DNA of 62,107 bases, the filler included, from Sphacelaria rigidula (taxonomy: Eukaryota), in NCBI GenBank assembly GCA_964200075.2. It is 6 parts of 6 records of this genome, joined end to end, with 100 filler letters (N's around TTAATTAATTAA, not from the genome) between each part and the next. Parts side by side here need not be neighbours in the genome. Positions count along the whole stretch, not along the records: positions 10,371 to 20,638 come from CAXNAA020006822.1; 5 more parts are not named here. One strand, written 5' to 3'. Below are positions 4,119-31,106 of this stretch, piece by piece. The position numbers and the translations under genes are program-made. Numbering within the stretch: position 1 is the first letter of the stretch; each line of letters starts with the position of its first letter. Below the pieces are notes generated by a model. That model was not told the DNA's origin. It saw only the letters and a list, made by a program, of their open reading frames with translations, and made no database searches.

Positions 4119-4937
4119 TTTTTTTACACATGGCAACAGGCTTTCACTAGGGCGCGAAAAGCAGAGCCTGCTAGAACACCCTGTTCTATCATCAAACCAG
4201 CAGGGTACACCCGACTCTGAGCTAAAGTTGTGCATCATACCAAGGGTCTACCGGCAGAAAATTCCTGGACACCTAGGCCCCAAGATCGAGCAATTGAGTT
4301 TTTGATGGGGGGGTGCGGGGTTTGGGGGAGGGGGGGGGGGGGGGGGGCGTGGACACTAAGTCTCTTATCTTTAGTTAATAGCCGAGGCGTGGGCGATTCC
4401 GGTCAGCTGCTGTGTACACTCTTGCGCACGAGTAAGCTAGGCAGACCAATTCGCGCCAACGTTCGCGACATATACCACTTACCATGATCACGTTCATGGG
4501 ATCATGTTTCGTGTCGAGTGCGTGGAGTACCTACCAGCAGCCCGAGTAAATTTGGCAAGGCGTGAGATAATGTTGCTACTTTGGCTACAGACGGTCGCTA
4601 CCGTGCGCTCGTGTGTATACATGTGTGTGAGCGTGGCCGGCATGTGAGGTCACCGGGACAGAGCGGATAAGGTGCAGAAGCAAATATACGAACGTCGCAA
4701 AGCCCACCAGACGTTTCGATTTTTGTCAGTGCTTCCCGACCAGTTTCTTCAACATTACTCCACGAAAAAAATCACAAAAGTCATGACAATTTTCGAAAAA
4801 TTGTCCTGCGGGACGGGGGGGGGGGGGGGGGTGGTGGGTAAACAAATTTTTTACCGGTAGGCCCGTGAGATGCTTTTTTTTAATTTCCCCCCCCCCGTAT
4901 TTNNNNNNNNNNAAAACAAAACACAAAAAAAAAAGAA

Positions 4938-5990: not shown

Positions 5991-6449
5991 ATTTTGTCTA
6001 ATCCCCTTGTTATGTAACTGCCGTGGTGGAAACATGACGCGCCGTGTGAATCTACTTTTCAACCCTGCTACAGCCACGTTGGAGGTAACGGCTACGGCTT
6101 TCTCCGTGTGGTGCTGACACTCCTTGGGCACTTGGGCAATTTTTGTGCTGTAGGCGACGTCTTCGGGTGTTGAGCCGTAGCAGTTGTTATCAAAAGACAG
6201 CATATTCCAAGTGATGCAATCAGCCACAGTCACTGCTATACCTGTAAGGCACTGTAGCTCTCATCAGCCAACATACCACGCAAGACCCTACTTTTCTGCA
6301 TGTACGGTCTCTTGGCATCGCTTCCCTACAACAAGCTTGGTCCAGCAAAAACTCGGCGTGCTCTGTCCTGACTTTGCAGGGATGCGAGGTCAGTGGTCTA
6401 CGACTTTGGCATGCGAGATCATGAGTACACCCCCGTACGATATATGCAC

Positions 6450-10270: not shown

Positions 10271-10370
10271 NNNNNNNNNNNNNNNNNNNNNNNNNNNNNN
10301 NNNNNNNNNNNNNNTTAATTAATTAANNNNNNNNNNNNNNNNNNNNNNNNNNNNNNNNNNNNNNNNNNNN
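10271..10370. other. Artificial contig spacer (N44-TTAATTAATTAA-N44)
   Basis: The same 100-nt linker recurs at 20639-20738, 31007-31106, 41374-41473 and 51741-51840. Confidence 0.97.
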
Positions 10371-10624
10371 CTTAGCAAGATGCAGCTCACCCTTCATGCG
10401 ACTCGCCGAACACACCACGGCGCGACGCGCTTGGTGGTTTGAGTGTAAGCCTGGTCCGGCGAAAACCCGGCGTGCTCCGTCCCGGTATGCGAGGTCAATG
10501 GTCTTATGACTATGGCATGCATGATCATGAGTACACCCCCCCCCACCCACCGCCCATACACACATATCTGTCGATAAGCGCGACCGAAACAATGGCTGTG
10601 CAAGCGCTGCCTACATTTACCCAC

Positions 10625-12562
10625 CTTTTTGTTCCTCATGTAGAAGTATATAGCAGTTTGGTGCGGCATATTTTGCACGTACATTTCTGCGTATCTGTCG
10701 AGGAACGCCAGGATTTTGTTTCGGTGAACAGGATTCCTACCATCTCCTGGGCCACCGTCGCCCCCGACGCAACACCCGAAACACAACATTCGTGAGATTC
10801 AGAGGGTTGTTTCAGATTCGGAGTGAGACCCGAAACAATCGACTTTCCCGTCGATTTTGACATCGCCACAGATCGAGGAGTAATGCGCTCAGCTGGTGAT
10901 GCGGTGGCTTCAATGAAAACTGTTAGCTACACGATCATTTTGACACACCACTTGATCGCAACAAATGATAAAGCTCAAGGAAGAAACAATAATAATAAAA
11001 TTTTGCTGTTGGGAACGCTGGAGTATCTACCTCGACTCTGATACTACCCTCTGAATCTCACGAATAGCGTCTTCCGGGTGCATCACGGTGAAAAACCAAG
11101 TTGAGCAATAATTTTTCCCGTCACAGGTGTTCAACGGGTCTATGTCGCATATAAAACCGCATGTGGACTGGGTTGGACCATGGCATGTTCGAGATTCAGA
11201 ATCATTATTTCGCCATAATATCACACGCCTCTTGTCATGACCATGTGTGTGTAGTACATATGCATAGACACCAGTACACGAAAGTCCTTGACCGGTTCTG
11301 AGCGCAAAATGTGTCTCCACCCACATAGGCGGATCCAATGGGCCTTACAGACTGGAAAACGGTTTATACCCCGCCCCCCCAGTACAGCACTATCGTCATT
11401 TCAAAGCTCGATTACCCCATGACGAAGAGGGTGCCAATACCAAACGACGCGTTTTCGGACAGCTATTGACGAGATCTTTTCAGCGTCACCCTTTTCAGAA
11501 CTGATGCTCTTCTCGTTGTGAAGTAGTCGAGCTTTGAAATTCGGTCGAGGGGGTCTGCGATGGGTCGCGACAATTACGGTGTACCGTTTTCACCGTACTG
11601 TAGGGTTCGAGGTCACATGCGGTGCACGTCCTCGGCAGTGGACACAGAAACAGAGGATATGACTACTGCATACTGCCTGCACTACGGTACTACACGTGAA
11701 GGCTTAACTTCGTTTACTGTGCGTGTGTTACTGCTGTGTACTACGGCCTGGACTACGGTACCACGCGTGAAGGCTTCGTCTAGCTTAAAAATTTCCGCAA
11801 CGGGCAGCCGATTCGGAACAATTGGGCTCCTAAATTAAAAAACAATGCGGAATCGGTCATAATAAAACCGTGGAAACGAGGATCCTGATGGACACATCTG
11901 ATCTAACTCGGAGATCACACTCGTGTGATTCTCAACACCGATGGGGCACCCGGGTTCTTCTTGGCGTTCTCGATGAAGTTCTTCGACACCCCATAGGCTC
12001 GAGCGAAGAAACGATTACAAACCACGCCGTCGGAAGCATGCATGGATCCCATGTTCTTACCTGGTTTCTAATACGGCACGTGCCCTCGTACCCGAGCCAG
12101 TCTTGCTTGGCGCGCGACGACACGGTTGAGGTCATCTTGCTCGAACGCCAACCTCCGAGCATCAAGTGTCCCTTCAAGGAACCGCTCTACACACCGTAAA
12201 CTGCGGCAGCATTCGAAACTCAATGCAATCATATCGTGCAGCTCCATCGGCCGTGTGGGGAGAGCTACAGCCGACACCGGAACGATCGGTTCGAGGAGGG
12301 GTTGCTCTTGTTGCCGTCCTTGTGGTGTCAAGCCGCCGGCATACCCACATGATGATTCGATGTTCCGCTCTGCGGGTTCAACCGAGGTCGCGAACAGGAG
12401 GCGACCTGCCTCTGTAATAGGCATAGACGCACGCTGCACACTAATTCCTCTGGTGAGTGGATGTTTCAGAGTGGGTGATGCCGATACTTTATGACAGCTG
12501 GGGCAGGGCGGTGGTGCTCTGACAGTAACGACAGTGCAGCCGTTGTTCCGCATCTTGACCAT
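10625..12562 (-). pseudogene. Putative DNA transposase N-terminal region (Sola-like/DUF7869-type motifs); spliced, degenerate, runs off the contig
   Basis: Reading through the TAG at 12068-12070 gives ECCRSLRCVERF...DARRLAF...DGVVCNRFFARAYGVSKNFIENAKK. Further down are CDGKNYCSTWFF...IREIQRVVSESR (11130-11030) and NKILAFLDRYAEMYVQNMPHQTAIYFYMRNKK, ending at a GT donor at 10624. From memory these match the CC-x-C-F, VC-xx-F-xxx-YGVS and Y-x-(D/N)MP motifs of that family. No catalytic DDE region is visible. Confidence 0.45.
11365..11555. mobile_element. Short MITE-like insertion
   Basis: Internal inverted repeat tttcaaagctcga...tcgagctttgaaa. It lies in an intron of the minus-strand gene. Confidence 0.4.
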
Positions 12563-12877
12563 TCTCGCCGGGATTTAAAACCAACATGCCCTGACTGCTA
12601 GAACGTCGGGACAAATATGCTGTGGTTCTGTGCGCAACCGGCTATGTGCACCAGAAGCGCGATTAGAGAATGGGACACATGTCGACAAATATCGGGATCG
12701 TTAGGTCTTTTCACCTGCCTGACTGGTGTGATTGTTTTGATGGCATGGCAACCGACGTGCTGCAAACGGGTCGCCATTCCACAGAAAGTGACGACCGTAA
12801 CAAACACGCCGCTGTACTAGTCACTAAGTACGATAATATCGGTAAACACGGCTTATTCGTACTCATGCGATTCTGAT

Positions 12878-15800
12878 ATGACCCAGATACGTCGCCACGT
12901 TCCCAGTGCAGGTGGCTTCGTGGGTGACCTGGGTAACGTGTCCCGATCTTCATCGACCAAGTACACCCCACTCCCCCCCCCCCACCAACCCCCAACGTGA
13001 CACAACCCACTACGCTGCTGCCTGCGACCTGCATACTAATACACTCAAGCAGCAGGCTACCATTGTTTCAGGCGAATGTATTCCCCTGATTTCAGAAGCC
13101 AACCGTCAGGTGCAGTAGCGCCAGTACAGCGGAACATGAAAAGCCTCCTCACAAGCCACTACGTTGGTACGTTTCCGATAAAGTTATCTCAAATCACCGT
13201 GACGTCCCTCACGCGCGAGCTGAACCCTCGTGGAGTGGAGAAGGTCATCACTTCGTTGAAGTCAAAGGGGTGGCTCCCTCACAATCCGCCAGCCATCGTG
13301 ATGCCGCACAAAGGAGTCCCAGAGAATGGAGGAGTAACGCCGGAGTTTCTCGCGACGTGTGCTTTCCGCGTCTTGGACGGAAAGCATCGGATATCTGCCG
13401 CAAGATTGATTTCGAGCAAGATCACTGCGTGCCCTGTCGAGTGTACCACGAATTTGGGCCAGAGGTCATGCGCATCCTCGGCGACGGTGAGTCGTGATAT
13501 TGATCGATGGTATTTTCTGTGGCCACGTGCCCCCGCAATCGTTTCGAGAGCACCGAACTATCTGATGCCAAAACAAATGTCGCACGGCCTAGTGTTTGAA
13601 AATTGCCGACACAATGGTTGGGTCATCCGCCTCAAGTATGTACAAAAAAACGGTTGTTGTGGCTGCACACTAGTTTAGCGCTAGGAATTGAGGCTCGGCC
13701 TCTCCCACGGCTCGTCCGCGGGTCTATGATTCAAGCGACGGTTCGCGTGTGCCTGATGTGTAGACGTTGGATCTTTGACTACTTTTCCTCGTGTTTTTCG
13801 GGTACTGTTTTCATGCTTTTCGCCTCTACTTTTTTTCGTTTTCGGCACATTTTTGCTATTTTTTTGCGCATTTTTTTTGGGGGGGTGCCTTATTTCTTTT
13901 TCAGCCCCTAAAAAGAGGAAATCGGCACCTCAAGTGTTTTTAGGCGCCTTTTCTCTTTTTCGGGCTCTAAAAAGACAGTATGGCCCTTCACTTCGCATAC
14001 ACGAGTGTGCTGGCGTGTATATTTTTGCTTCAGCGCCTGGGTGTTTCCGGTTGCCGTTTGCATACATATATTTGGTAGCGAGAATTCGCACGTCTCAGGG
14101 CGTGTCTTCGCACTTTTTTCTCGAGCGAACAAAAAGAGCGGTGGGATTGAGTCAAGTGAATAGTTTTCGTTTTGATGCAGTTGGGCCCGGATGGATTTTC
14201 AAGCTTCCGATCCAAAAAAGACAGTGAATTCGTGAAATGGTACATGGTCTGTGCCGTTTGCACTGCTTGCAAGTACGATGTCTCGAGTTCTTGTGTGCGT
14301 GCTTCTCGCAGGAGAAGATAAAGGGAAAGTGGACAATGTGCAGTTCAGACAGCCCAAGGCTGTCGATTCTCTCTGCTTACAACTACTGTAGTGTATCTAT
14401 CCCTGTGCTCAACTCGTGCTCTATGCTACATGGTTGCGGTGGTGGCTGTGAATGAGTTGGATGGGCTTTGCATGGTCCTGTAAACGGGTGATATTTGGCG
14501 TGGTGGTCCATAAAACAAGGGTCAAGAGCCGCTTCGTGCCTTCCGACTTCATGGTTTCGATCGAAAAAATATGTTCTTTCACTCCTTACATTCTTCTCCG
14601 CGCGCCGCTGATTATAATTCTGAGTTGAAGCCTTTGAGACACGTAAGGGCAGCGGACCTATCAGATGGGCAGAAAAAACTTCGATCGCACTTTTTCGATC
14701 GAAAAAAAAGGTGCTAAGACACGCCCTCACACACCCAATGTCGTCCTTGCGGGAAGTAGCTGCGAGACTTGCGACACATCTGGGACGTTTACCCGAAAGT
14801 CCCCAAATTTTCATATTTGTTCTGCGATGATGTGTGACGGCCGTTTTTCTCCGACAAAATGCAGAAATCTGTTCCGTTTCTCACTTCTTTTGTACGTCCC
14901 GGTGAGGTGGGCCAACCTCGCAATTTTGTGCATGACAAGGCTGTGATCGGTCCACACATGTTGCCATTCATAACCTTCACCCTTATCTCCGAGCCCTGTG
15001 TGAAAAATTGGCGGCGGGGGGGGGGGGGGGGGGGGGGGTAGTGGCCGATCGTCATCGACGGGACGTGTTTAGGCGCATTTTTTTCAGACCTTTCGTTCAA
15101 TTCTCAGATTCCAAACGAAAATAGAACATAGCAGATTCCAACGCCACAGTTCTGGGGTAACATGCAGTCGGACTTACATCGTGCGGTCTGTCGACATGAT
15201 CGACAGCTCGGCTGTCGCCGCTTATCATGCCGATTCTCGCCGCAGGCAATAACAACCTGACACGAACTGTCTGTGTGGTCCAGATGCGTCGGGTTACGGC
15301 CCAAACGCAGACACCTTCGAATGTCGTGCTTCAGCCGTGAAGATAATTGCAGGACACCTGCGCGTTTTTCTGGTGGCCGTTTTTCATTTTGGCCGAACGA
15401 ACGACCTCGTCCGCGATTGTTGACACCTGCGATTGTGTTGCTGCACTCGTTGAGACGATTCAATAACACCTTTGCGTTTTCCGGTGGCCGCCGGTGAATT
15501 CTGCAATAATTGCGTTTTTGTCCGAGAACGGTCTGTTGGATGAAACACGGGGCCTGTTGTTTCCCGGCTGACCGTGCTCGGACAAACATGCGAGCCTCGC
15601 AAATGTTTTACCTCTGTCCGCCTTCAAACGCAAAGTGTCTTGGGATCGTCCGAGCGAATAGATAAAGACATATGAAGGACCAAAGGGACGACTTAATAGA
15701 TTTATATTGTTGCTGACCAGCATCAGCTGTGTCAGAGAGGAAATGTTTTCGAAAAAGAAGTCCGGAACATCGGAGAATAATAACCGCGTCAACCGTTGCT

Positions 15801-18800
15801 GCTGCATGTATGCCTTCGAACAGCTTTAAACGATGTCGGCGAAACTCTGTCACCCCGCAACACGTACGACAAGCTTTCCATGTTCGTTGGGATCATAACA
15901 TCGGTCCAGGAGAGGATGGGGAGCGATGCCGTCACGGGGGAACAAATAGCGAAGGAGTTCAAGGAACGTGAGTAATGGAATGTGAAACACGGGGTACTAC
16001 AAAACCGGGTCTTCATTACGCGGGGACGATGGTGGGCATTGGGTGAAGTTTAAAGTCGTATTGTACCACACGTGCGCTGCGGTTCATGTACGTTACATCT
16101 CGGAACCGAGTCAAGTCCGCTTGTATTGTGGTAAACTAGTTGCCGGACGGTCTACGACGCGTGCACTGCGTCTCCCACCCACTCGTACGCCGCAAAACAA
16201 TCCAGTGTGCAGCGAACACGACATTCACCGCATCTGATGCATGTTTTTCTGCACGGTCCGATGGTGCCCCCTCGGTACCGAAAACAGCTGGGTTTGAGTT
16301 CTCTGTCGCTGGTGACGATGCGGCACTGGCGGAAGGCCTGCTTCTCCACTACACCGGAAGCAATGAAGGCCATTGCCTGGGCGTTCCAGACGTCGGACCC
16401 CGGTATCGACGCAAAATGTGTTTCGCTGACGTACCTGAAGAGCAAGGCTTACAGCGATCTACACGCCAAACCCGCAGCGCAATCGATCGCCGTCAATATG
16501 CTTGTAAGGTATGCACCACCGGCACATCCAGTCGCTTGTTGTGGTAATCTAGAGTTATCTTCCATTAATTCGCCGCACCGAAGGATGACGAGAGTGTGTC
16601 ATGTGGTATGTCCTGGTTGACAGACCGTCATAACCAATTTATCCAAGGTACAACCACAAATACCCCCCACCTCCGCGCGAAGCAGTCCACTTTCAAAATT
16701 GAGGATAGAGTTTTGGTAGAGGACGAACCTCGGGAACCTTCATCAAGATCGAAAAGGTTTCGAAATCAAAATACAAAAGCATTCTCCGGTTGGGATGTGT
16801 GACCTCAGTCGTTGTAGCAAAACAATATATAGCATGAACAGTGTTTTGCTCCAGAATCGCTGGAGGACGATAGCGACCCGTATAAACGCCGGCGGTCACG
16901 AATTGCAGATGTGAAAATTAGTTATTAATTAATCAAAGATTGTTTGAGGATGGTTGGTTTGGATGGTTGGTTGGATGGTTGGTTGAATTTTGAATATAAT
17001 TAAAACTGTATATAAAAATATATTATTAATTAATTTAATATTGTTTGAGGATGGTTGGTTGGATGGATGGTTGAATTATGAATATAATTGAAACTGTATA
17101 TAAAAGTTCATTTATTAATTAATTAAATATTGTTTGAGGATGGATGGTTGGGATGTATGGTTGAGTTTTATTTTTTGGAGAAAGGAAAGACAATATCGAC
17201 CCGTATGAACGCCGGGGGTCGCGAATTGCAGATGGTTGCATTCGAGGATGAGCGAGGCCACACATGACAGGCGGAGAGTGCAGATGTGTGTTTATTTCGA
17301 ATATATCGCGATGCTCATGAAAGATCCCAAGGGCGGTACCCAGATGACATTCATCCTCGATTTTCGACCGTGCCACGCCAGACATTCGAGGGCGAACAAG
17401 ATGACACCCACACCGAAAGATTGGGATCGGATCACCAAAAATGCCCGCATCGCGCACGACCTGGTGGAGAGAATCGAGAGCGTGGTCCCTCGTCTTGCTT
17501 GGACGGACAGGTTTAAGGAGTGAGTGCCGTTAATCTGTAGCTTGGTCACCGCTCGAGATAAGACGCTCTGTCCATATCGATACCACGTTAAAATGCGCCG
17601 CCGTGTATGTGACTATCTCTGCACACTAGTCGACCTGTCACGGACTGTGGTGCGACGTCTGATGTTTTCGATTCCAATTTCTGCGAACAGCGGCGTGCAC
17701 AGAATGATAAACGGTACGTACGGGTTGGAAGATTTCCAGCTGTTCGTGGGGGACTACATATCGTCCGTAGACAAGACGATATCAGAGACAAGAGAAGCCT
17801 GCCGGCCGAAGAACAGGAAGGCGAAGCCATGAAGGAATTCGAGGCGGTCTACAATGGAAGACTTCCACGGACCTTGGAGCTGGTGCGTTGCTCCCGTCGG
17901 TATTTGACTTTATCCTAAGAAGGTGGAGACATATATTCGCTGCCGCGAGCTGATCGGTGATCGGCCTCGCTGCTCAGGCACGGAAGTCAACTGTATCTTT
18001 CTCGGCAATACTGGTCAAGGAGAGTAAACCACCACCACCGCCCACGTACATTTGCACTCCAGAGACGAAGCAGAGACGTGCTGCCGGTCGTCCCTTCTGT
18101 TGTATCTTAGTTCATACTTGTCATACCAAAGATACTGCCGTCACCCCCGATCGCAGATGACACAAAGAGGGAACCTCAAGTCCTTCAGCGAAACGTGGAG
18201 AAAAAAATGGAAGGCGATAAACGACAAGACAGCGCGTTTAAAACTCGTGGGTAGCGGCGGTGAGGGAAATGTGGACGACGCATCCGTTGGGGAGGCCGAC
18301 GGCGAGGGTGAGGAGGGCAGGGACCGTCCAGCAGCGGGTAGTCGCGAGGGCAAAGTGTGCGAGTCGTGCAAACCCACCCTACACGTCAGGTGAGAGTGAA
18401 AATAGCGCACATGGAGTATCTAGTCGGAGGGCGGGCACCGAGGTACACACCCATCGATGAAGGCATTGCTCGCGAGACTGTCGATCGATTCGCCGCCGAC
18501 ATATATTCCTCTGTCCTCATTCCCGCAGGTACCGATGCACGCACTGCGGGGTTGCACACTATACGTTCTGCGACCTGCTCGCCCCTATCTCAGAAGATGC
18601 GACTCTGACCGAGCGAAAAAAGCACCTTTGCATATGGTGCGAGGGCGACCCAGAGCGCCGGAAGAGGAAAGAATCTCAGGCACCAGCCGGAGACGGCGTC
18701 ACATCAAATAGCGGGAAGAAAGCGAGGAAGGCAAGCGTTCCCCGACCGCCCGCCGGCGCCACCATGGAAGAGCAAAGGTGCGATGATCCCAGATCCAGTC

Positions 18801-20005
18801 GAGCGTTTCCTCGTGTAAAACCAGTCGCCGGTGCATTTCATCTTTTCGCCACGTGTCTCTCAGTGTGTGTAGTTGGTCACATAACCCTTGCCCCCCCCGC
18901 GGATACACCAACGCGAGAAACGACCGGTCGGTTGGCAACTATGGCTGTGTCGCGCTTATACTCTCGGAGTACACCGTGAGAGTGTTACTACGTCAGGGTG
19001 GGGGAGGGGAGGGGTGCGGCGGCGTAAGGCAGTACCGTAGGTCTTAATCAGACCCCAGCACTCGATACATATTTTCATCTTCTATACTGTGTTTGTCTCC
19101 ACGCTCATAATACTTGCGGTTTGTTTGTGCCGCGATTCTTCGAATTTGACAATGTGCCGATGTAGCCCCCCCTCCCTCCCCCCCCCCCAGGAGTTGCGCC
19201 CGTAACAAACCACAGCGCAGGTGAAGGCAATGAGATCGTACATTAAAGGGAGTCGGTGATAACTGCAGGCTAATAAAAGTGAAAGCGGAAATACGTAATG
19301 ATGACCCGTCGGGTAGGGTGCGTGTTTCGACGGTGCTTTGGTTGTCTGCCTCAGGGTCACACTTCACCCGTGTATTTCCGTCGGATATCGATATGTACCG
19401 TGTGGAATGGCCTCTGTTTTTTCGCGCAGGCGCAAGAATTTTACCACGCACGCGGTAAACCTGCTTCGCAGAGGGCGTGAGCTCATCGATGGAGGCGACC
19501 CCCTGTCTGTGGCACGCCAGCCAAAGCTCATCCTCGTCTCCTTGGATGCCGAGAAAAGCATCCTGTCCCTAACAGACGACCACGTCAAGAGGTTCTTCAA
19601 GCGGTTCGTGGGCAAACTGCTGAGCGCCTTGCATCCTTTAGGGACGATCGCATTTGCCTTGCCGCGGCCGTGGTTCCCGCATGAAAATCGAATCAGAGGT
19701 ACCACCCCACACGCAATACATAGAGGGGGGGGGATTCGGGATTTAAATGAAGGTGGTATGGCATTGTTTGGCACCTAGAAATGTAGCGAGATAACGATCG
19801 CTATACTCGGAGATAGATGGTCGCCACAGAAGGTGAAGCAAGAAGGGGATAAGGTCTGTAAAACATTTCGTGTCATATATGGAAGAAGCGTCATGAGTGC
19901 CGAAATGTTCGAGGTATTTATTCATCAGGTGTAGGAACGGAGCTCCGGCTGAGTGTCGCGCGGTCAATGGTCAAACGGCGAAGGCGAGCAAAAAAAGACT
20001 ATGCG

Positions 20006-20058
<53 letters not shown>

Positions 20059-20478
20059 CCCCCCGCCCGACCGCCCACCCCGGCCCGGCCCTCGCTGTCG
20101 CCGACCCGCCTGCACCACGTGACAGACGCCATCACTCAAGACCACACCATGGCGCTTAAAGAAGACCCTGTCCTCATCGAATATCCAAGCAAACACGGGG
20201 GCTCTCGGAAGAGAGAAGAGAAATTCTATTTTTAACCGCATCACGAAGCCATCATGGTGGCCCGCAAACGGTCAGAGCAAGAGGGGAAATGTTTCACGGT
20301 GAACCAGAGGGTCACATTCAAAGAACCCTACGGCAGCACAATCAGGGGGAAAATGCCAGACTGCTGGCAGAAGATCGGCGGCGGGCACACCGAGATGTTG
20401 ACGTACAAGCAAGGAGCTCCGGCCGGCGGCCCCGAAAATTCTTTACCCCCGGGATTGTTGCGCGCCTTCGTTTGGAGG
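12878..20478 (+). pseudogene. Multi-exon ParB/Srx-like + HTH + PHD finger + beta-class N6/N4 DNA methyltransferase-like gene (3' end off the contig)
   Basis: Hand-spliced GT-AG exons: 12878-12932 (tentative), 13110-13486, 15824-15967, 16288-16508, 17232-17519, 17691-17882, 18157-18389, 18529-18777, 19430-19698, 20126-20477. All junctions are phase-consistent except 15967/16288, which is off by one. Motifs: RVLDGKHRISAARL..VPCRVY..ALND (ParB); TGEQIAKEF..LGLS (HTH); CESC..CTHCGVAHYTFC..CIWC (PHD); IDGGDPL..LILVS..LHPLGTIAF..LIEYPSK..HHEAIMVARK..DCW..LPPGLLRAFVWR (MTase). Lesions: frameshifts at ~13411 and ~17800, TAA at 20233-20235. Confidence 0.75.
16874..17234. repeat. Intronic AT-rich insertion bounded by 38-bp imperfect direct repeats, containing ~90-110 bp tandem units with (TGGA/TGGT)n
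   Basis: cgacccgtat(a/g)aacgccgg(c/g)ggtc(a/g)cgaattgcagatg occurs at 16874-16911 and 17197-17234. Confidence 0.7.
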
Positions 20479-23400
20479 TGATGGCGTGTCCGGTGGTTAA
20501 TGGAAGGTATTACTCCACCCTTCATGATGTTGTATGTTCCATCACTACACTGCTGGGTCTTGTTTTTTCTCCGTTATACGAGCGGAAGGCAACTCGTCAC
20601 GCGACAAGCGGGTTGTTGTATGTACTGTTATATCAGGGNNNNNNNNNNNNNNNNNNNNNNNNNNNNNNNNNNNNNNNNNNNNTTAATTAATTAANNNNNN
20701 NNNNNNNNNNNNNNNNNNNNNNNNNNNNNNNNNNNNNNATTGTCCACCCCTTCCCTTCACTAGGCGCATTTTGCACCCAATGTCGGAAATTCTGGAAATG
20801 GCTGACCAGGGGGGCGTACTCATTTGTTGCTTGCCTCAGTCGTTTGACCATTGACCACGCATCCCTTTCGAGACGGAGCATATATAGAGGGGGGCGGATT
20901 GACTTGCGCGAGGCTTGGTGACAAATGAGAGGAAAAGGTGGCATTGTGGCTGGAGGAGTGTAAGAGTTGAGTAAGGTATGAACAACAGTAGAAGCAGCGA
21001 CAACGGCAATCGGGTGGGCTTCTGTGGGTCTTTGTTCGGGTTTACCGCGAAGGCGGCAGAAAATGGGTGGAGCGCCGGGCTTGCGAGGAGTCACAGCGTT
21101 GTGATCATACTTGCAGGACTGTACCACACGCGGTGGGACGGGACGCTGTGCGGTCAAGTGCCATGTCTTCGGGAAGTTGGGGTTGCTTTCAAAAGCTGGC
21201 CCATGTCTTCTTCGGGAGCGACGTTCGATCCATGTTTTGAGGTGATGTGTTCCGGGTGACGGGCTTGTTGGCAAATACGTTTACTGAAGTTGTGTCTGAA
21301 ATGGCTATGGGAGCTGGCCCATATCTGAGTTGAGAGTCTTGAATGACCTTTTGAGGCGCAAGTTACCTCGGATGAGGAGAGGAAAGGAGCTATGGACACA
21401 CCGTTGCAAGAGTATTGGGACTTGGCCTGGGGCGCACGGGAGCACATGATGTTTTATCTAGTGAGAGCCGCAATGAAGCCATCGCAATGTGTCAAAGATG
21501 GGGCGTTTCTGAAGTCCGTGGTATACGATATGGTATTGCTCTCATAGGTTCACATTCCAAACCTTAAGGGGTTCACCAACGATAGCCAGACGAAAGACCA
21601 TTGAGAATGCCCCTGAGACATGTTCAGCGAAGATACATGATACTCTCGAGAGTGAGGTGCGATGCCGTCCGTCGAGGCTTGGCCAAGTAGGAACTCACGC
21701 TCGAGTTGGAGGATAGTAAAGTGTAAAACACTGTCACTCGAGGGAAGGTCGGGCAAAGTAGTGCTCGTGTAAATTTAGGCTACGATGTAAATTTCAAAAG
21801 GCTTGGTTTAATCGATCAAACATCCACTCTCGAGTTTAGGGTGTAATGGAATACTGGCAAGATGTCATCATTTCGAACTGACAAAGTTTGAAATGTATGC
21901 CGTTAGAGTGTAGACTGCGCCGTGCGTGTGTTGGAAAGTATGAAACCCTCGGCAAAACGAGGCCCACATTCGAGCTAGAACCTAGCTAAGTGTGATACTG
22001 CACTGTCACTTTCGACGGCTGGTCAAGCAAAGACCAGGGCGTTTGCGTCGAGCGTGAAGTCTTAAAATCATTTTTCGTTCTCAGGCATCAGGTGTGGTCA
22101 TTTTGCATTATTGATTGGCACTGATAGTTGATATATCCGATGTAACTACTAGAACAAATAGTGTTCTCTGGCCTTGCCGGAGATGATAAGGCGAATGCGT
22201 ATAAGCTGAAATCGATGGTTCGACGAGTTGTCTATGCATAGTTTGTTAACTCGTGATATGTGGCAATAAGATTCTGTTAGGACAGGATAATCGTCATGCC
22301 CTTGTCATGATTACAATTGTACATGCTTTACAGCTCGCTGGAAAACCAATCGTGTTTGGTATTCCATGTTCTACCTTCCCCCCCTGAAACGGCAGCGCAG
22401 GGAGACTGAATCTGCGTTCAGATAAATGAATTTGTATATCAGGTATATACACATAATGTTCTTCCGGAGCACGCAGGAGACTGTCGCTTGTTGTCATCCG
22501 AGTCGACTCGAAAATTCCTCCAAGTGCTCCCGTGCCATTTATGTATTTGCTCATATTGTTTGCATGAAATGGAAAAGAGAAACTGGCCGGCGTCCGCGAC
22601 TTTCGACGGTGGGAAGAGCTAGAATCATGCAAATTCCGTGCGATTTTCACGGCTTCCGACAAACCGCAGCGCTTCTAATCTTTTCTTTGTTTTCAGCTGT
22701 ATTCTGCTGCATTAGAAACAACGTATCCCTCCTTAAAGTGTGTGCGCCATATAAACAACCAACACATACCCAACCGTGACGTCAAATCTCAAAATAAAGA
22801 GGTGGTGGAGTAGGTGTTGACGTGGTGAAATTATGTGGTGATGTGACGTTGGAAATATAACATCATTCAGAATATGCGCTGGTTATACCAGCTGCGCTGG
22901 TTGTATCAGCTGTTCGGAGTAATATGTACACGTATAACACGGGACAATGCACCCAATTGATGGCCAAATTGTCATTCCTTCGTGCCTCCTGTGTTGTATT
23001 CACACCACGGTCACCTTGGGTTTCAAGAAAACAACCCTTTATCCACCCTTTCTCACCCTCTCGACTCTCGAAGCGAGCAAGAAAAGGGCGGAGCAACAGG
23101 TGAACAAGAGTAATGGATGGAATATACCCCTGCTGCTGTATGAATCTATTCCCTAGGTGGTTGTGTCACAATCGACTGGAGGTAGCGTTTCCTCCCAGCG
23201 TGTGCATCGATGGGGAGAGGATACCAATGAGGAACCCCAATGAGAGCGAGACGGTGGTCATGGCTGACGATAAGCCGGTGTACGAGCTCTCACGATGCCA
23301 CCTGATAGAGTCGCTGAAGGAGAAGGTGGGCACTGTAGCAGTATCTCCACTGACCATGGGCAGCATAGAACAGCTTGTTTTCGTTTTTGAGGTTCAACAT

Positions 23401-29870: not shown

Positions 29871-31106
29871 ATTGACGTTCCACAAGCACGCTGTTGACAC
29901 TAGACCCGTTATCCATCAATCAACCTATAAACGCATCCTATGCATTTTTTCCACTGCAGTTATGTACCTAACCACGGTAACAATGTTGCCCGAAGTCTAC
30001 ACCACCCCCAAAGCTCGCTTACTACCAAAACGTAGTCAACTTAGAGCTTGATAAACTCACGCATCTTGTTGCCGAATTCTACCGTCATTTTTCACATAGA
30101 ATGGCAATCCCTACCGCAGTATACGATAACAGCCAAACAAAGTTGTCCAATTTCCGAATAACTCGCAAGAGATCCAAAACGTTCATCATGAACACGAAAT
30201 CACGCTACTTGCACCGCTCCGAACCATGTATACCAATCCAACAACGGCAGACGGACCTCGACTTCCGCCATCATTGATCACCGGTAGTGATATCGTTCTC
30301 AAACTCGATTTACCGAGTACATCCCGGAACGCACCCGGATATAACGTCCCAACTTGGATTTAGGACCGTCATATCCCATCAGTCGATCAACCGCGATGTG
30401 AAATGCAGTTCATGTCCCGACAGACTGGCAGCTCTCCTGCACCGCTTCCTTAAATAAACGGACACTCCATCAACATGATCCTTCCAAACGGAAATAAAAC
30501 ATTCGATCAAAAAACGTTCCATAGCCGAAGATCACTAATCTTAACCACAAGAAACTCTCGCGTTTCCCTTGCGCACATACGCGCCTGCGCATTTCGTAGT
30601 TACTGCTCATTTTTAACGCCAACAGCAGCAATGACCATCTCCTACAGTCTGTCCCCACGAACCGCACAAAGAGAACTAACTCCCCGTGTCAACCAGATCA
30701 GCACAGCACACCCGTCCCAAACATCCACGTGTACGCCAGAATTTTGCCCTGCGCTCGCGATACCATCATACTCGCTCAACAACTATGTTTATGCGCAGAC
30801 ATGACCACAAACCAGCAAATAAACGTCTGCTATGTATTTTATCCACTGTAGTAATGTACCCAACCACGGTAACTGTGTTGCCCGGAGTTTACTGGTACTG
30901 ACAAGTCGGCGAGACACCCTCGTTCTTCTTTTTCTACGCGTATACCGAGTCATCCTACGATAGCGGGGGGGGTATTTTGGGCCATTTGTCGCTCGAAATT
31001 TCGAGTNNNNNNNNNNNNNNNNNNNNNNNNNNNNNNNNNNNNNNNNNNNNTTAATTAATTAANNNNNNNNNNNNNNNNNNNNNNNNNNNNNNNNNNNNNN
31101 NNNNNN

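Follow-up and report, generated by a model that had tools for sequence, protein, structure and literature searches.

An intron-rich Sphacelaria rigidula locus, most likely a degraded copy of a multicopy brown-alga gene family with ParB-like, zinc-finger and methylase-like regions

Gene structure and splicing

The window analysed here is a 62,107-nt stretch of DNA from the brown alga Sphacelaria rigidula (GenBank assembly GCA_964200075.2), and its second piece (window positions 10371-20638, record CAXNAA020006822.1) carries an intron-rich gene with predicted ParB-like, helical, zinc-finger and methylase-like regions. This locus is most likely a pseudogenised, contig-truncated copy of a multicopy brown-alga gene family found in Sphacelaria, Ectocarpus and Pylaiella. 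The draft assembly is broken up into contigs of ~10 kb, and the window consists of six S. rigidula pieces (10270, 10268, 10268, 10267, 10267 and 10267 bases), which are such contigs sorted by size. They are connected by artificial, non-genomic joints of the form N44-TTAATTAATTAA-N44 at 10271-10370, 20639-20738, 31007-31106, 41374-41473 and 51741-51840; piece 1 also contains a 10-N gap (4903-4912). Because the window is made of joined pieces, any feature spanning a joint or this gap is an artefact. No further copy of the gene was found in the other five pieces.

Contigs of four public sequencing runs (X1, X2, X5 and X6) were placed on piece 2. X1 and X2 are labelled only 'RNA?' and were taken as RNA solely because both carry spliced joints. 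X5 and X6 behave as DNA and may be the runs that were used to make the assembly. Statements on joints refer to the joints listed; 186 further joints lie beyond these.

A chain of nine exons runs along the plus strand from 13136 to 20477, and all eight complete introns begin with GT and end with AG in the window sequence. The hidden multi-exon chain was confirmed as one real gene, since the Pylaiella littoralis protein P0047 (772 aa) is co-linear with seven of the nine exons and the public S. rigidula model P0001 joins exons 5b to 9. In tblastn searches P0047 matched exons 1, 2, 3, 4, 7, 8 and 9 with E-values of 3e-8, 0.04, 5e-6, 0.003, 9e-8, 4e-10 and 3.5e-9, respectively. P0001 (293 aa) is deposited as 'unnamed protein product, partial', comes from a contig of 10,268 bases, is identical to the window in exon 8 and begins at ATG 17828, downstream of the second frameshift described below. 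The original prediction for this locus, made from the sequence alone, was right in calling one intron-rich gene, part of which is already on public record. It had placed the gene at 12878 to 20478. The exon chain between these positions stands, with both borders revised. A start at 12878 is unsupported: homology to P0047 sets in at 13178, and 13136 holds the first in-frame ATG. Position 20478 is not the gene end; it is a GT splice donor located 160 nt short of the contig end (20638). The gene leaves the contig at approximately residue 700 of 772 in P0047 numbering.

Exon 1 (13136-13486) starts with the ATG and encodes a putative ParB/Srx-like N-terminus with RVLDGKHRISAA, ending in ...MRILGD/G (here and below the slash marks the splice site); its positions 13178-13396 align to P0047 with 37% identity. 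Intron 1 (13487-15823) is skipped by the RNA joint 13485 to 15823. Splicing at GGCGACG/GTGAGT...CAG/CT gives ...MRILGD-A-LND, which agrees with the split ParB motif described originally, and the ParB-like region would continue in exon 2 (15824-15967, with ALNDVGETLSPRNTYDKL). Intron 2 (15968-16287) is followed by exon 3 (16288-16508), where an RNA-type contig begins at 16288 and extends to 16483. Exon 3 encodes a helical region aligned to P0047 residues 155-232 and, by analogy to ParB, is proposed to hold a helix-turn-helix (HTH). Intron 3 (16509-17381; RNA joint 16506 to 17380) separates it from exon 4 (17382-17519), a helical linker region with RNA joints on both sides. The joint across intron 4 (17520-17690) runs from 17520 to 17692 and is placed one base off GT..AG; a canonical GTGAGT...AACAG cut is possible there with one mismatch in the expressed copy. 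Exon 5 (17691-17882) holds the P0001 start codon and is followed by intron 5 (17883-18156; RNA joint 17881 to 18156).

Exon 6 (18157-18389), which has RNA joints and is included in P0001, encodes an acidic/Gly-rich linker together with the finger's first Cys pair (...CESCKPTLHV/R). Across intron 6 (18390-18528; RNA joint 18387 to 18527) the sequence GTCAG/GTGAGA...GCAG/GTACCGATGC is spliced into ...LHV-R-YRCTHC, again as described in the original prediction. The remainder of the finger (YRCTHCGVAHYTFCDL...CIWC) lies in exon 7 (18529-18777), followed by a basic tail that resembles a nuclear localization signal. At intron 7 (18778-19429) contigs end at 18778 and start at 19432. Exon 8 (19430-19698) encodes part 1 of the methylase-like region, with predicted strands PKLILV and GTIAFAL, a helix between them and PRPW after the second. 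Conservation within the family is highest in this block, which matches the sole well-predicted stretch of the P0047 model (residues 530-600). Intron 8 (19699-20125; RNA joint 19696 to 20124) precedes exon 9 (20126-20477), the middle of the methylase-like domain, which aligns to P0047 residues 589-700. Some 70 or more C-terminal residues, including a Gly-rich motif resembling the S-adenosylmethionine (SAM) loop, lie beyond the contig end.

In total, introns 1, 3, 4, 5, 6 and 8 are skipped by X1/X2 joints (at least six of the eight complete introns, among the joints listed); none of these six joints was seen in the DNA-type runs X5 and X6, among the joints listed. RNA evidence thus confirmed most of the proposed junctions. 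Introns 2 and 7, with no direct joint among those listed, are supported by the sequence and by contig edges, and intron 7 also by P0001. A single 799-nt X2 contig links exons 4-5-6-7. The RNA-type contigs are ~5% divergent from the window (43 other letters in 799) and therefore come from sister copies, not from the window locus.

Some introns contain repeats of their own. Intron 3 carries 2.3 copies of an AT-rich 88-base tandem repeat (16961-17169); on either side of it lies one member of a 46-nt direct repeat (16866-16911 and 17189-17234, 89% identity), and the whole looks like a small insertion or duplication. A natural TTAATTAATTAA occurs at 17115 in the same intron and is identical to the word in the artificial joints. 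Two long homopolymers, ~26 G at 15013-15038 in intron 1 and 63 C at 20006-20068 in intron 8, coincide with places where the reads seem to be cut.

Lesions of the window copy

The window copy contains three 1-nt frameshifts and one in-frame TAA, and it is unable to encode the protein. In exon 1 the window reads TTT after 13409 (13410-12) versus TTTT elsewhere, a 1-nt deletion. The extra T was found in all X1/X2 depth and in about half of the X5/X6 depth. A second 1-nt deletion is located in exon 5, with AA after 17794 (17795-96) versus AAA elsewhere; the extra A was present in all X1/X2 depth, whereas ~22% of the X5 depth shows an additional base there, A or T. In exon 9 the in-frame TAA at 20233-20235 (shown as '*' in the tblastn alignment) stands against TAC in other copies. 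Position 20235 reads C for A in all X1, X2 and X5 depth and in nearly all X6 depth (A in less than 1%), and the sister protein P0007 has Tyr at this position.

The fourth lesion is in exon 2, which we infer to be 1 nt too long near 15961-15963 (it ends ...CAAGGAAC). The sister-copy model P0003 reads ...GVHEPGFEF across the exon 2/3 junction and DNA contigs read CGAAC behind 15961, which together indicate ...CACGAAC and an exon 2 shorter by one base. With the excess nucleotide exons 2 and 3 join out of phase, and the shorter form restores the phase. With all four lesions corrected, phase arithmetic makes all eight introns phase-consistent. The frameshifts and one out-of-phase junction are thus as described in the original prediction, the exon 2/3 junction being the one out of phase.

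P0003 itself, from an S. rigidula contig of 11,384 bases, has exons 2-4 and the finger exon in wrong frames. It follows that broken copies are not rare, and that the public proteins of this family are in part artefacts of frameshifted copies.

Family members and copy number

P0001, used as the query in an exhaustive search, matched 44 proteins at E≤0.001; 13 of them reached E≤1e-10 and two E≤1e-30. Most are fragments of 74 to 180 aa. Clusters were looked up for 30 of the 44 matches, and eight of these 30 were named, from S. rigidula, Ectocarpus sp. CCAP 1310/34 and Pylaiella littoralis. Only these look-ups yielded two longer members, namely the Ectocarpus protein P0046 (589 aa) and the Pylaiella protein P0047; a word-index search found no longer relatives of P0001.

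Within S. rigidula, family fragments are found on at least eight contigs (10268, 5560, 11384, 12000, 7580, 5700, 14780 and 6051 bases) with 56% to 90% identity to P0001. Single exon and intron positions show alternative letters in 5 to 23 different DNA contigs each; at the intron positions 13774, 14075, 14366 and 14647, 7 to 20 contigs carry other letters. Since exon and intron positions are both multicopy, the whole gene including its introns is repeated at the DNA level. Many of the family open reading frame (ORF) fragments end in ...RIRG, which corresponds to the exon 8 border. Intact members are estimated at ~770 to 1100 aa and would contain four modules: ParB-like, helical, finger and methylase-like.

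The ParB-like region and the zinc finger

The original prediction described a fusion of ParB/Srx, HTH, PHD and N6/N4-methyltransferase-like domains. The module order (ParB-like, helical, C4HC3 finger, methylase-like) held up; the expected ParB_N, PHD and N6_N4_Mtase profile matches did not. None of the anticipated profile matches (ParBc/ParB_N_Srx, PHD, N6_N4_Mtase) was found in the exons, P0001, P0025 (an Ectocarpus homolog), P0046 or P0047. For exon 1 and the intact P0047, ParB_N (PF02195) was absent even at E≤1 to 10.

The window gene carries the motif DGKHR in exon 1, and P0047 carries DGHHR (RVLDGHHRISCL), in each case after a hydrophobic stretch. The consensus is RVLDG[KH]HRIS, in which DG[KH]HR is kept between the window and P0047. 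ParB/Srx N-terminal domains conserve a motif of the G-x-[HR]-R type that follows a hydrophobic strand, and DGxHR occurs in many ParB-like nucleases and in DndB. The closest language-model (ESM) neighbors of exon 1 belong to DUF6551/ParB_N (0.94), and 10 of the 10 best family-bearing hits are of the same family or clan, an agreement that a third of shuffled proteins likewise reach. The best relevant library match was the PHROG 'ParB-like partition protein' at E=0.15. Judged by the motif and the language-model neighbors, the N-terminal part is likely ParB-like. By analogy, the helical region would occupy the position of the ParB HTH.

The finger has the pattern C-x2-C-x9-C-x2-C-x3-H-x3-C-x~20-C-x2-C (C4HC3) and is split by an intron between exons 6 and 7. 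The full pattern is present in four family proteins (P0001, P0002, P0010 and P0047), and its second half in six more proteins that begin at the exon border. Pfam PHD (PF00628) did not match P0001 at E≤10 or P0047 at E≤1, and ESM neighbors with PHD reached only 0.75-0.76. In a search of PDB sequences the first half of the finger weakly resembled the ZZ finger of p300/CBP (E=0.059). The finger region in the P0047 model has a predicted local distance difference test (pLDDT) score of 69-87. We consider it a putative PHD-like cross-brace finger of uncertain type.

The methylase-like domain

N6_N4_Mtase (PF01555) was not detected in the exons, P0001, P0025, P0046, P0047 or 20 other family fragments. 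P0047 was modelled by AlphaFold2 on a 40-row alignment, and residues ~520-610 of the model have pLDDT of 86-95. Foldseek comparison to the PDB gave CcrM (6pbd_B) as the best match (E=1.2e-3, prob 1.00, 122 columns). The PDB list consists mostly of SAM-dependent methyltransferases, including M.MboIIA, TTHA0409, M.BceJIV, M1.HpyAVI, rotifer N4CMT and METTL3-14. The best BFVD matches were phage N4C/N6A DNA methylases, from E=1.4e-3, with none at E≤0.001. VIA-align of residues ~499-644 gave best Z values of 7.5, at rmsd 3.5 over 114 aligned residues, and 7.8, at rmsd 4.2 over 118; such values, below 8, can reflect just a common arrangement. Nearly all of its 50 rows are class-I methyltransferase folds. 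The structural check suggested with the original prediction gave marginal matches headed by CcrM-type methylases, at levels short of E≤0.001 and a Z of 8.

The model shows, in order, strand PKLIVV, a helix, strand TIAIG, PRPW, a helix, further strands and then a C-terminal ...AVGIGMGST..., a helix and ...RSVEMF. This order may be read as strand 3, helix C, strand 4 with the catalytic loop and, at the end, strand 1 with the Gly loop and the acidic strand 2. A circularly permuted order of this kind is described for M.MboIIA/M.MunI/MT-A70-type enzymes in the relevant passages of Iyer, Zhang and Aravind (2016; PMC4738411), and because the strand order is the same, the domain is read as circularly permuted. 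An assignment of motif IV to 'PKLxxVxxDxE' was dropped: the model puts this strand one helix before the GTIAxxVPRPW strand, a position that fits strand 3, with PRPW fitting the strand-4 loop.

At the catalytic-loop site, 35 of 38 covering proteins have PRPW (32) or PHPW (3). [D/N/S]PP[Y/F/W], also with H as the last residue, had no in-frame occurrence in 54 family proteins, and the one DPPY-type match is an out-of-frame stretch of P0003. Compared to the catalytic consensus, PRPW has one proline fewer and no polar residue in first place. The C-terminal Gly loop and acidic strand read GIGMGST...RSVEMF in P0047 and GVGVEST...RRVEFY in P0025 and P0046. This loop, which lies outside the window, was seen in the three sequences that reach the C-terminus and is degenerate relative to FxGxG. 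From the model we conclude that the C-terminal domain probably adopts a permuted class-I methyltransferase fold; methyltransferase activity of this domain appears doubtful.

Other features of the contig

The left end of the contig (10371-10713, core about 10448-10548) is a very high-copy repeat with a summed X5 word depth of ~6.9 million, versus 5,000-100,000 elsewhere. Many contigs step back 91-97 bases within it, which suggests a ~94-base tandem unit in other copies. Relatives of this repeat are found in piece 1 (6333-6434, 79% identity), piece 5 (34 nt, 100%) and piece 3. Upstream of the gene, 12086-12428 has an RNA-type depth of ~1000-2000, and a minus-strand ORF at 12068-12574 (168 aa, no family match) could be a divergent neighbor gene or a repeat. 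Another minus-strand ORF (10636-10926) matched Pfam CxC4 (KDZ transposase-associated Cys cluster) at noise level (E=0.078, 13.3 bits versus a cut-off of 26.9). The 14 flanking and intronic ORFs showed no significant family match.

Proposed role and alternative explanations

We lean towards the view that the family members are cargo (accessory) genes carried by a DNA transposon, by analogy to the ParB-like and DNA-methylase protein of the Ectocarpus transposon Sola1-1_Ec32, because it is brown-algal (including Ectocarpus), multicopy, often degraded and transcribed, with ParB-like and methylase-like modules that take sensitive methods to detect. The data show the gene structure, its splicing, the homology, the multiple copies and the lesions; transposon carriage, DNA binding and any enzymatic activity are what we infer for intact members. 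In such a protein the ParB-like and helical part would bind sites that recur within its own element, the finger would dock on chromatin and the methylase-like domain would mark DNA (N6-methyladenine, 6mA, or N4-methylcytosine, 4mC). Alternatively, PRPW may be catalytically dead, and the domain would only hold DNA or SAM. Either way, the element might be shielded from silencing or its transposition aided. A stronger form of the proposal, in which intact members are active transposon-borne DNA-modifying enzymes with PRPW as a new catalytic loop and are targeted by the ParB-like part to their own element, seems to us rather improbable. If true, it would amount to a self-marking system (6mA, 4mC or another mark) that lets a transposon escape or steer host silencing. 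The original prediction favored a prokaryote-derived enzyme rebuilt as a eukaryotic chromatin protein; we find this less likely than a transposon cargo gene given the multiple and degraded copies and the Sola1 precedent.

A number of results weigh against the cargo-gene proposal and the domain assignments on which it draws. No transposase was found on the contig, where the 2.7 kb upstream of the gene gave no significant Pfam match, and its 10,268 bases show neither terminal repeats nor long inverted repeats indicative of element ends. Identity of the family with the Sola1-1_Ec32 protein is unproven, the two being likened by description, and the published account of that protein (Dinatale et al., 2025; PMC12477816) calls, in the passages that describe it, a DNA-methylase domain where Pfam finds none in the window family. 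Pfam and NCBIfam gave no significant match to the exons, P0001, P0025, P0046, P0047 and the 20 other fragments, and PHROGs and PADLOC gave insignificant matches only for the same proteins. With the family alignment profile, no PDB sequence matched at E≤10 was a methylase, and PDB searches otherwise returned nothing significant. The mean pLDDT of the P0047 model is 51.5 and the model is usable only at ~410-460 and ~520-610. Its ParB-like part was predicted poorly (pLDDT 26-32 for P0047 residues 1-100), as was exon 1 alone with P0047 as its sole relative (mean pLDDT 45.7). Foldseek found nothing in the PDB at E≤0.001 and no VIA-align Z reached 8. Finally, two of the frameshifts amount to a change in homopolymer length, for which assembly error is a possible cause.

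The family could instead be a host chromatin or DNA-binding gene family that expanded by ordinary duplication without any transposon, the window copy being a dead paralogue. The conserved positions of its spliceosomal introns (the fragments ending in ...RIRG), which number eight or more, the chromatin-type C4HC3 finger, correctly spliced transcripts and the missing transposase all fit this explanation. Its copy number and spread of divergence (56%-90%), however, resemble those of a repeat family, broken copies exist (the window and P0003), the introns are multicopy too, and introns are common in the genes of DNA transposons; the Ectocarpus precedent, as far as the published passages on it go, is a transposon cargo gene (PMC12477816). 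We regard a host family as unlikely. Still less probable, in our judgement, is an intact window copy, with all four lesions introduced by draft-assembly error. In favor of it, the assembly is broken into ~10-kb contigs, the two deletions in TTT/TTTT (13410-12) and AA/AAA (17795-96) are of the homopolymer-length type, and the A of the TAA at 20235 is found in no X1, X2 or X5 depth and in less than 1% of X6. Against this, the short form makes up about half of the X5/X6 depth at 13409 and ~78% of the X5 depth at 17794, so that frameshifted copies do exist in the reads (of runs that are possibly the assembly's own). For assembly error, four independent lesions within a 2.15-kb coding sequence are many, P0003 is another annotated copy with a broken frame, and public annotation reached only a 293-aa partial product.

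Viral insertions are present in brown-alga genomes, and the BFVD fold matches include pandoravirus, mimivirus and Megaviridae methylases (E about 0.008-0.03). An endogenous giant-virus (phaeovirus-like) insertion, with the ParB-like and methylase-like modules being viral, is nevertheless a very remote prospect: the gene has eight spliceosomal introns, BFVD gave nothing at E≤0.001, and tblastn of P0047 against 50,697 phage records found no match at E≤1. In IMG/VR, a scan with P0047 produced 16 pattern matches of which none was confirmed, and a DNA-pattern scan for HPxGTxAxxVPRPW found no stretch. JGI metagenomes gave 120 pattern matches to P0047, with none confirmed. Three metagenome stretches (L001-L003) that match HPxGTxAxxVPRPW are chance matches, full of stops.

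Comparison with known systems

Among the closest described systems is Sola1-1_Ec32, a giant 21.5-kb Ectocarpus transposon in which a 1104-aa protein is encoded on the strand opposite the transposase (Dinatale et al., 2025; PMC12477816). According to the passages on this element, the accessory protein has ParB-like DNA-binding and DNA methyltransferase domains, called by InterProScan or HHpred, and such proteins were proposed to bind and epigenetically modify their own transposon. The window family shares with it, as described there, the brown-algal origin, an N-terminal ParB-like and a C-terminal methylase-like region, multiple copies and transcription, and the window gene has the Ectocarpus homologs P0025 and P0046. 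P0046 lacks ~400 N-terminal residues of P0047, which makes a full Ectocarpus form of ~1000-1100 aa plausible. Two features set the window family apart, a zinc finger and an unusual catalytic motif, both unmentioned in the passages of PMC12477816 that deal with the element; the likeness to Sola1-1_Ec32 is one of description, and the 10-kb contig carrying the window gene shows neither a transposase nor element ends.

ParB and methylase cargo genes of giant algal transposons are therefore already in print, on the evidence of those passages, and the window locus alone, as a dead and truncated copy, is of little importance. The family would add Sphacelaria, Pylaiella and another Ectocarpus, as a second, third and fourth brown-alga lineage, to this recently noticed class of algal ParB and methylase cargo proteins. 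The intron-split C4HC3 finger and the nearly invariant PRPW in place of DPPY are details beyond the published passages. The same source states that brown algae reportedly lack plant- or animal-type epigenetic silencing machinery; DNA modification by family members, should it occur, would bear on transposon control in these algae.

Prokaryotic and phage beta-class permuted N6A/N4C methylases (PF01555; CcrM and M.MboIIA) provide the best PDB and BFVD fold matches. The model of the window family resembles them in having the strand 3/4 part first and the Gly-rich loop and acidic strand 2 last, and the family's putative N-terminal ParB-type module recalls the ParB-fused forms of these enzymes. The family differs in the missing Pfam and phage tblastn matches, in PRPW for [D/N/S]PP[Y/F/W], and in having introns and a eukaryotic-type finger.

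Among eukaryotes, the 'chlorophyte-type Dam' of chlorophytes and chytrids is an N-terminal ParB-type HTH fused to a Dam-type methylase, and its sister family has PHD-X/ZfCW fingers (Iyer, Zhang and Aravind, 2016; PMC4738411). As proposed for the window family, it combines, as far as it is described there, a ParB-type module and an adenine-methylase-like domain in a eukaryotic alga. Its clade belongs to the M.EcoKI/M.TaqI-like Group 2, for which the passages concerned describe no circular permutation, whereas the window family appears permuted and occurs in stramenopiles; the two are set apart by description.

In red-alga Plavaka transposons, PAG2 is an N6_N4 methylase with SET and PAG3 a ParB-like protein with a 2-oxoglutarate (2OG) oxygenase (Petroll et al., 2025; bioRxiv 10.1101/2025.02.11.637652). 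In the portions of that report which describe them, the ParB and methylase modules are on separate proteins, in another algal lineage and another transposon superfamily. The same portions present them as transposon cargo, with a ParB-like binder or a methylase joined to chromatin-type modules and with many degenerate copies, a picture close to the one proposed here. As with the window family, the PAG3 domains are described as invisible to InterPro and found only by HHpred at weak E-values.

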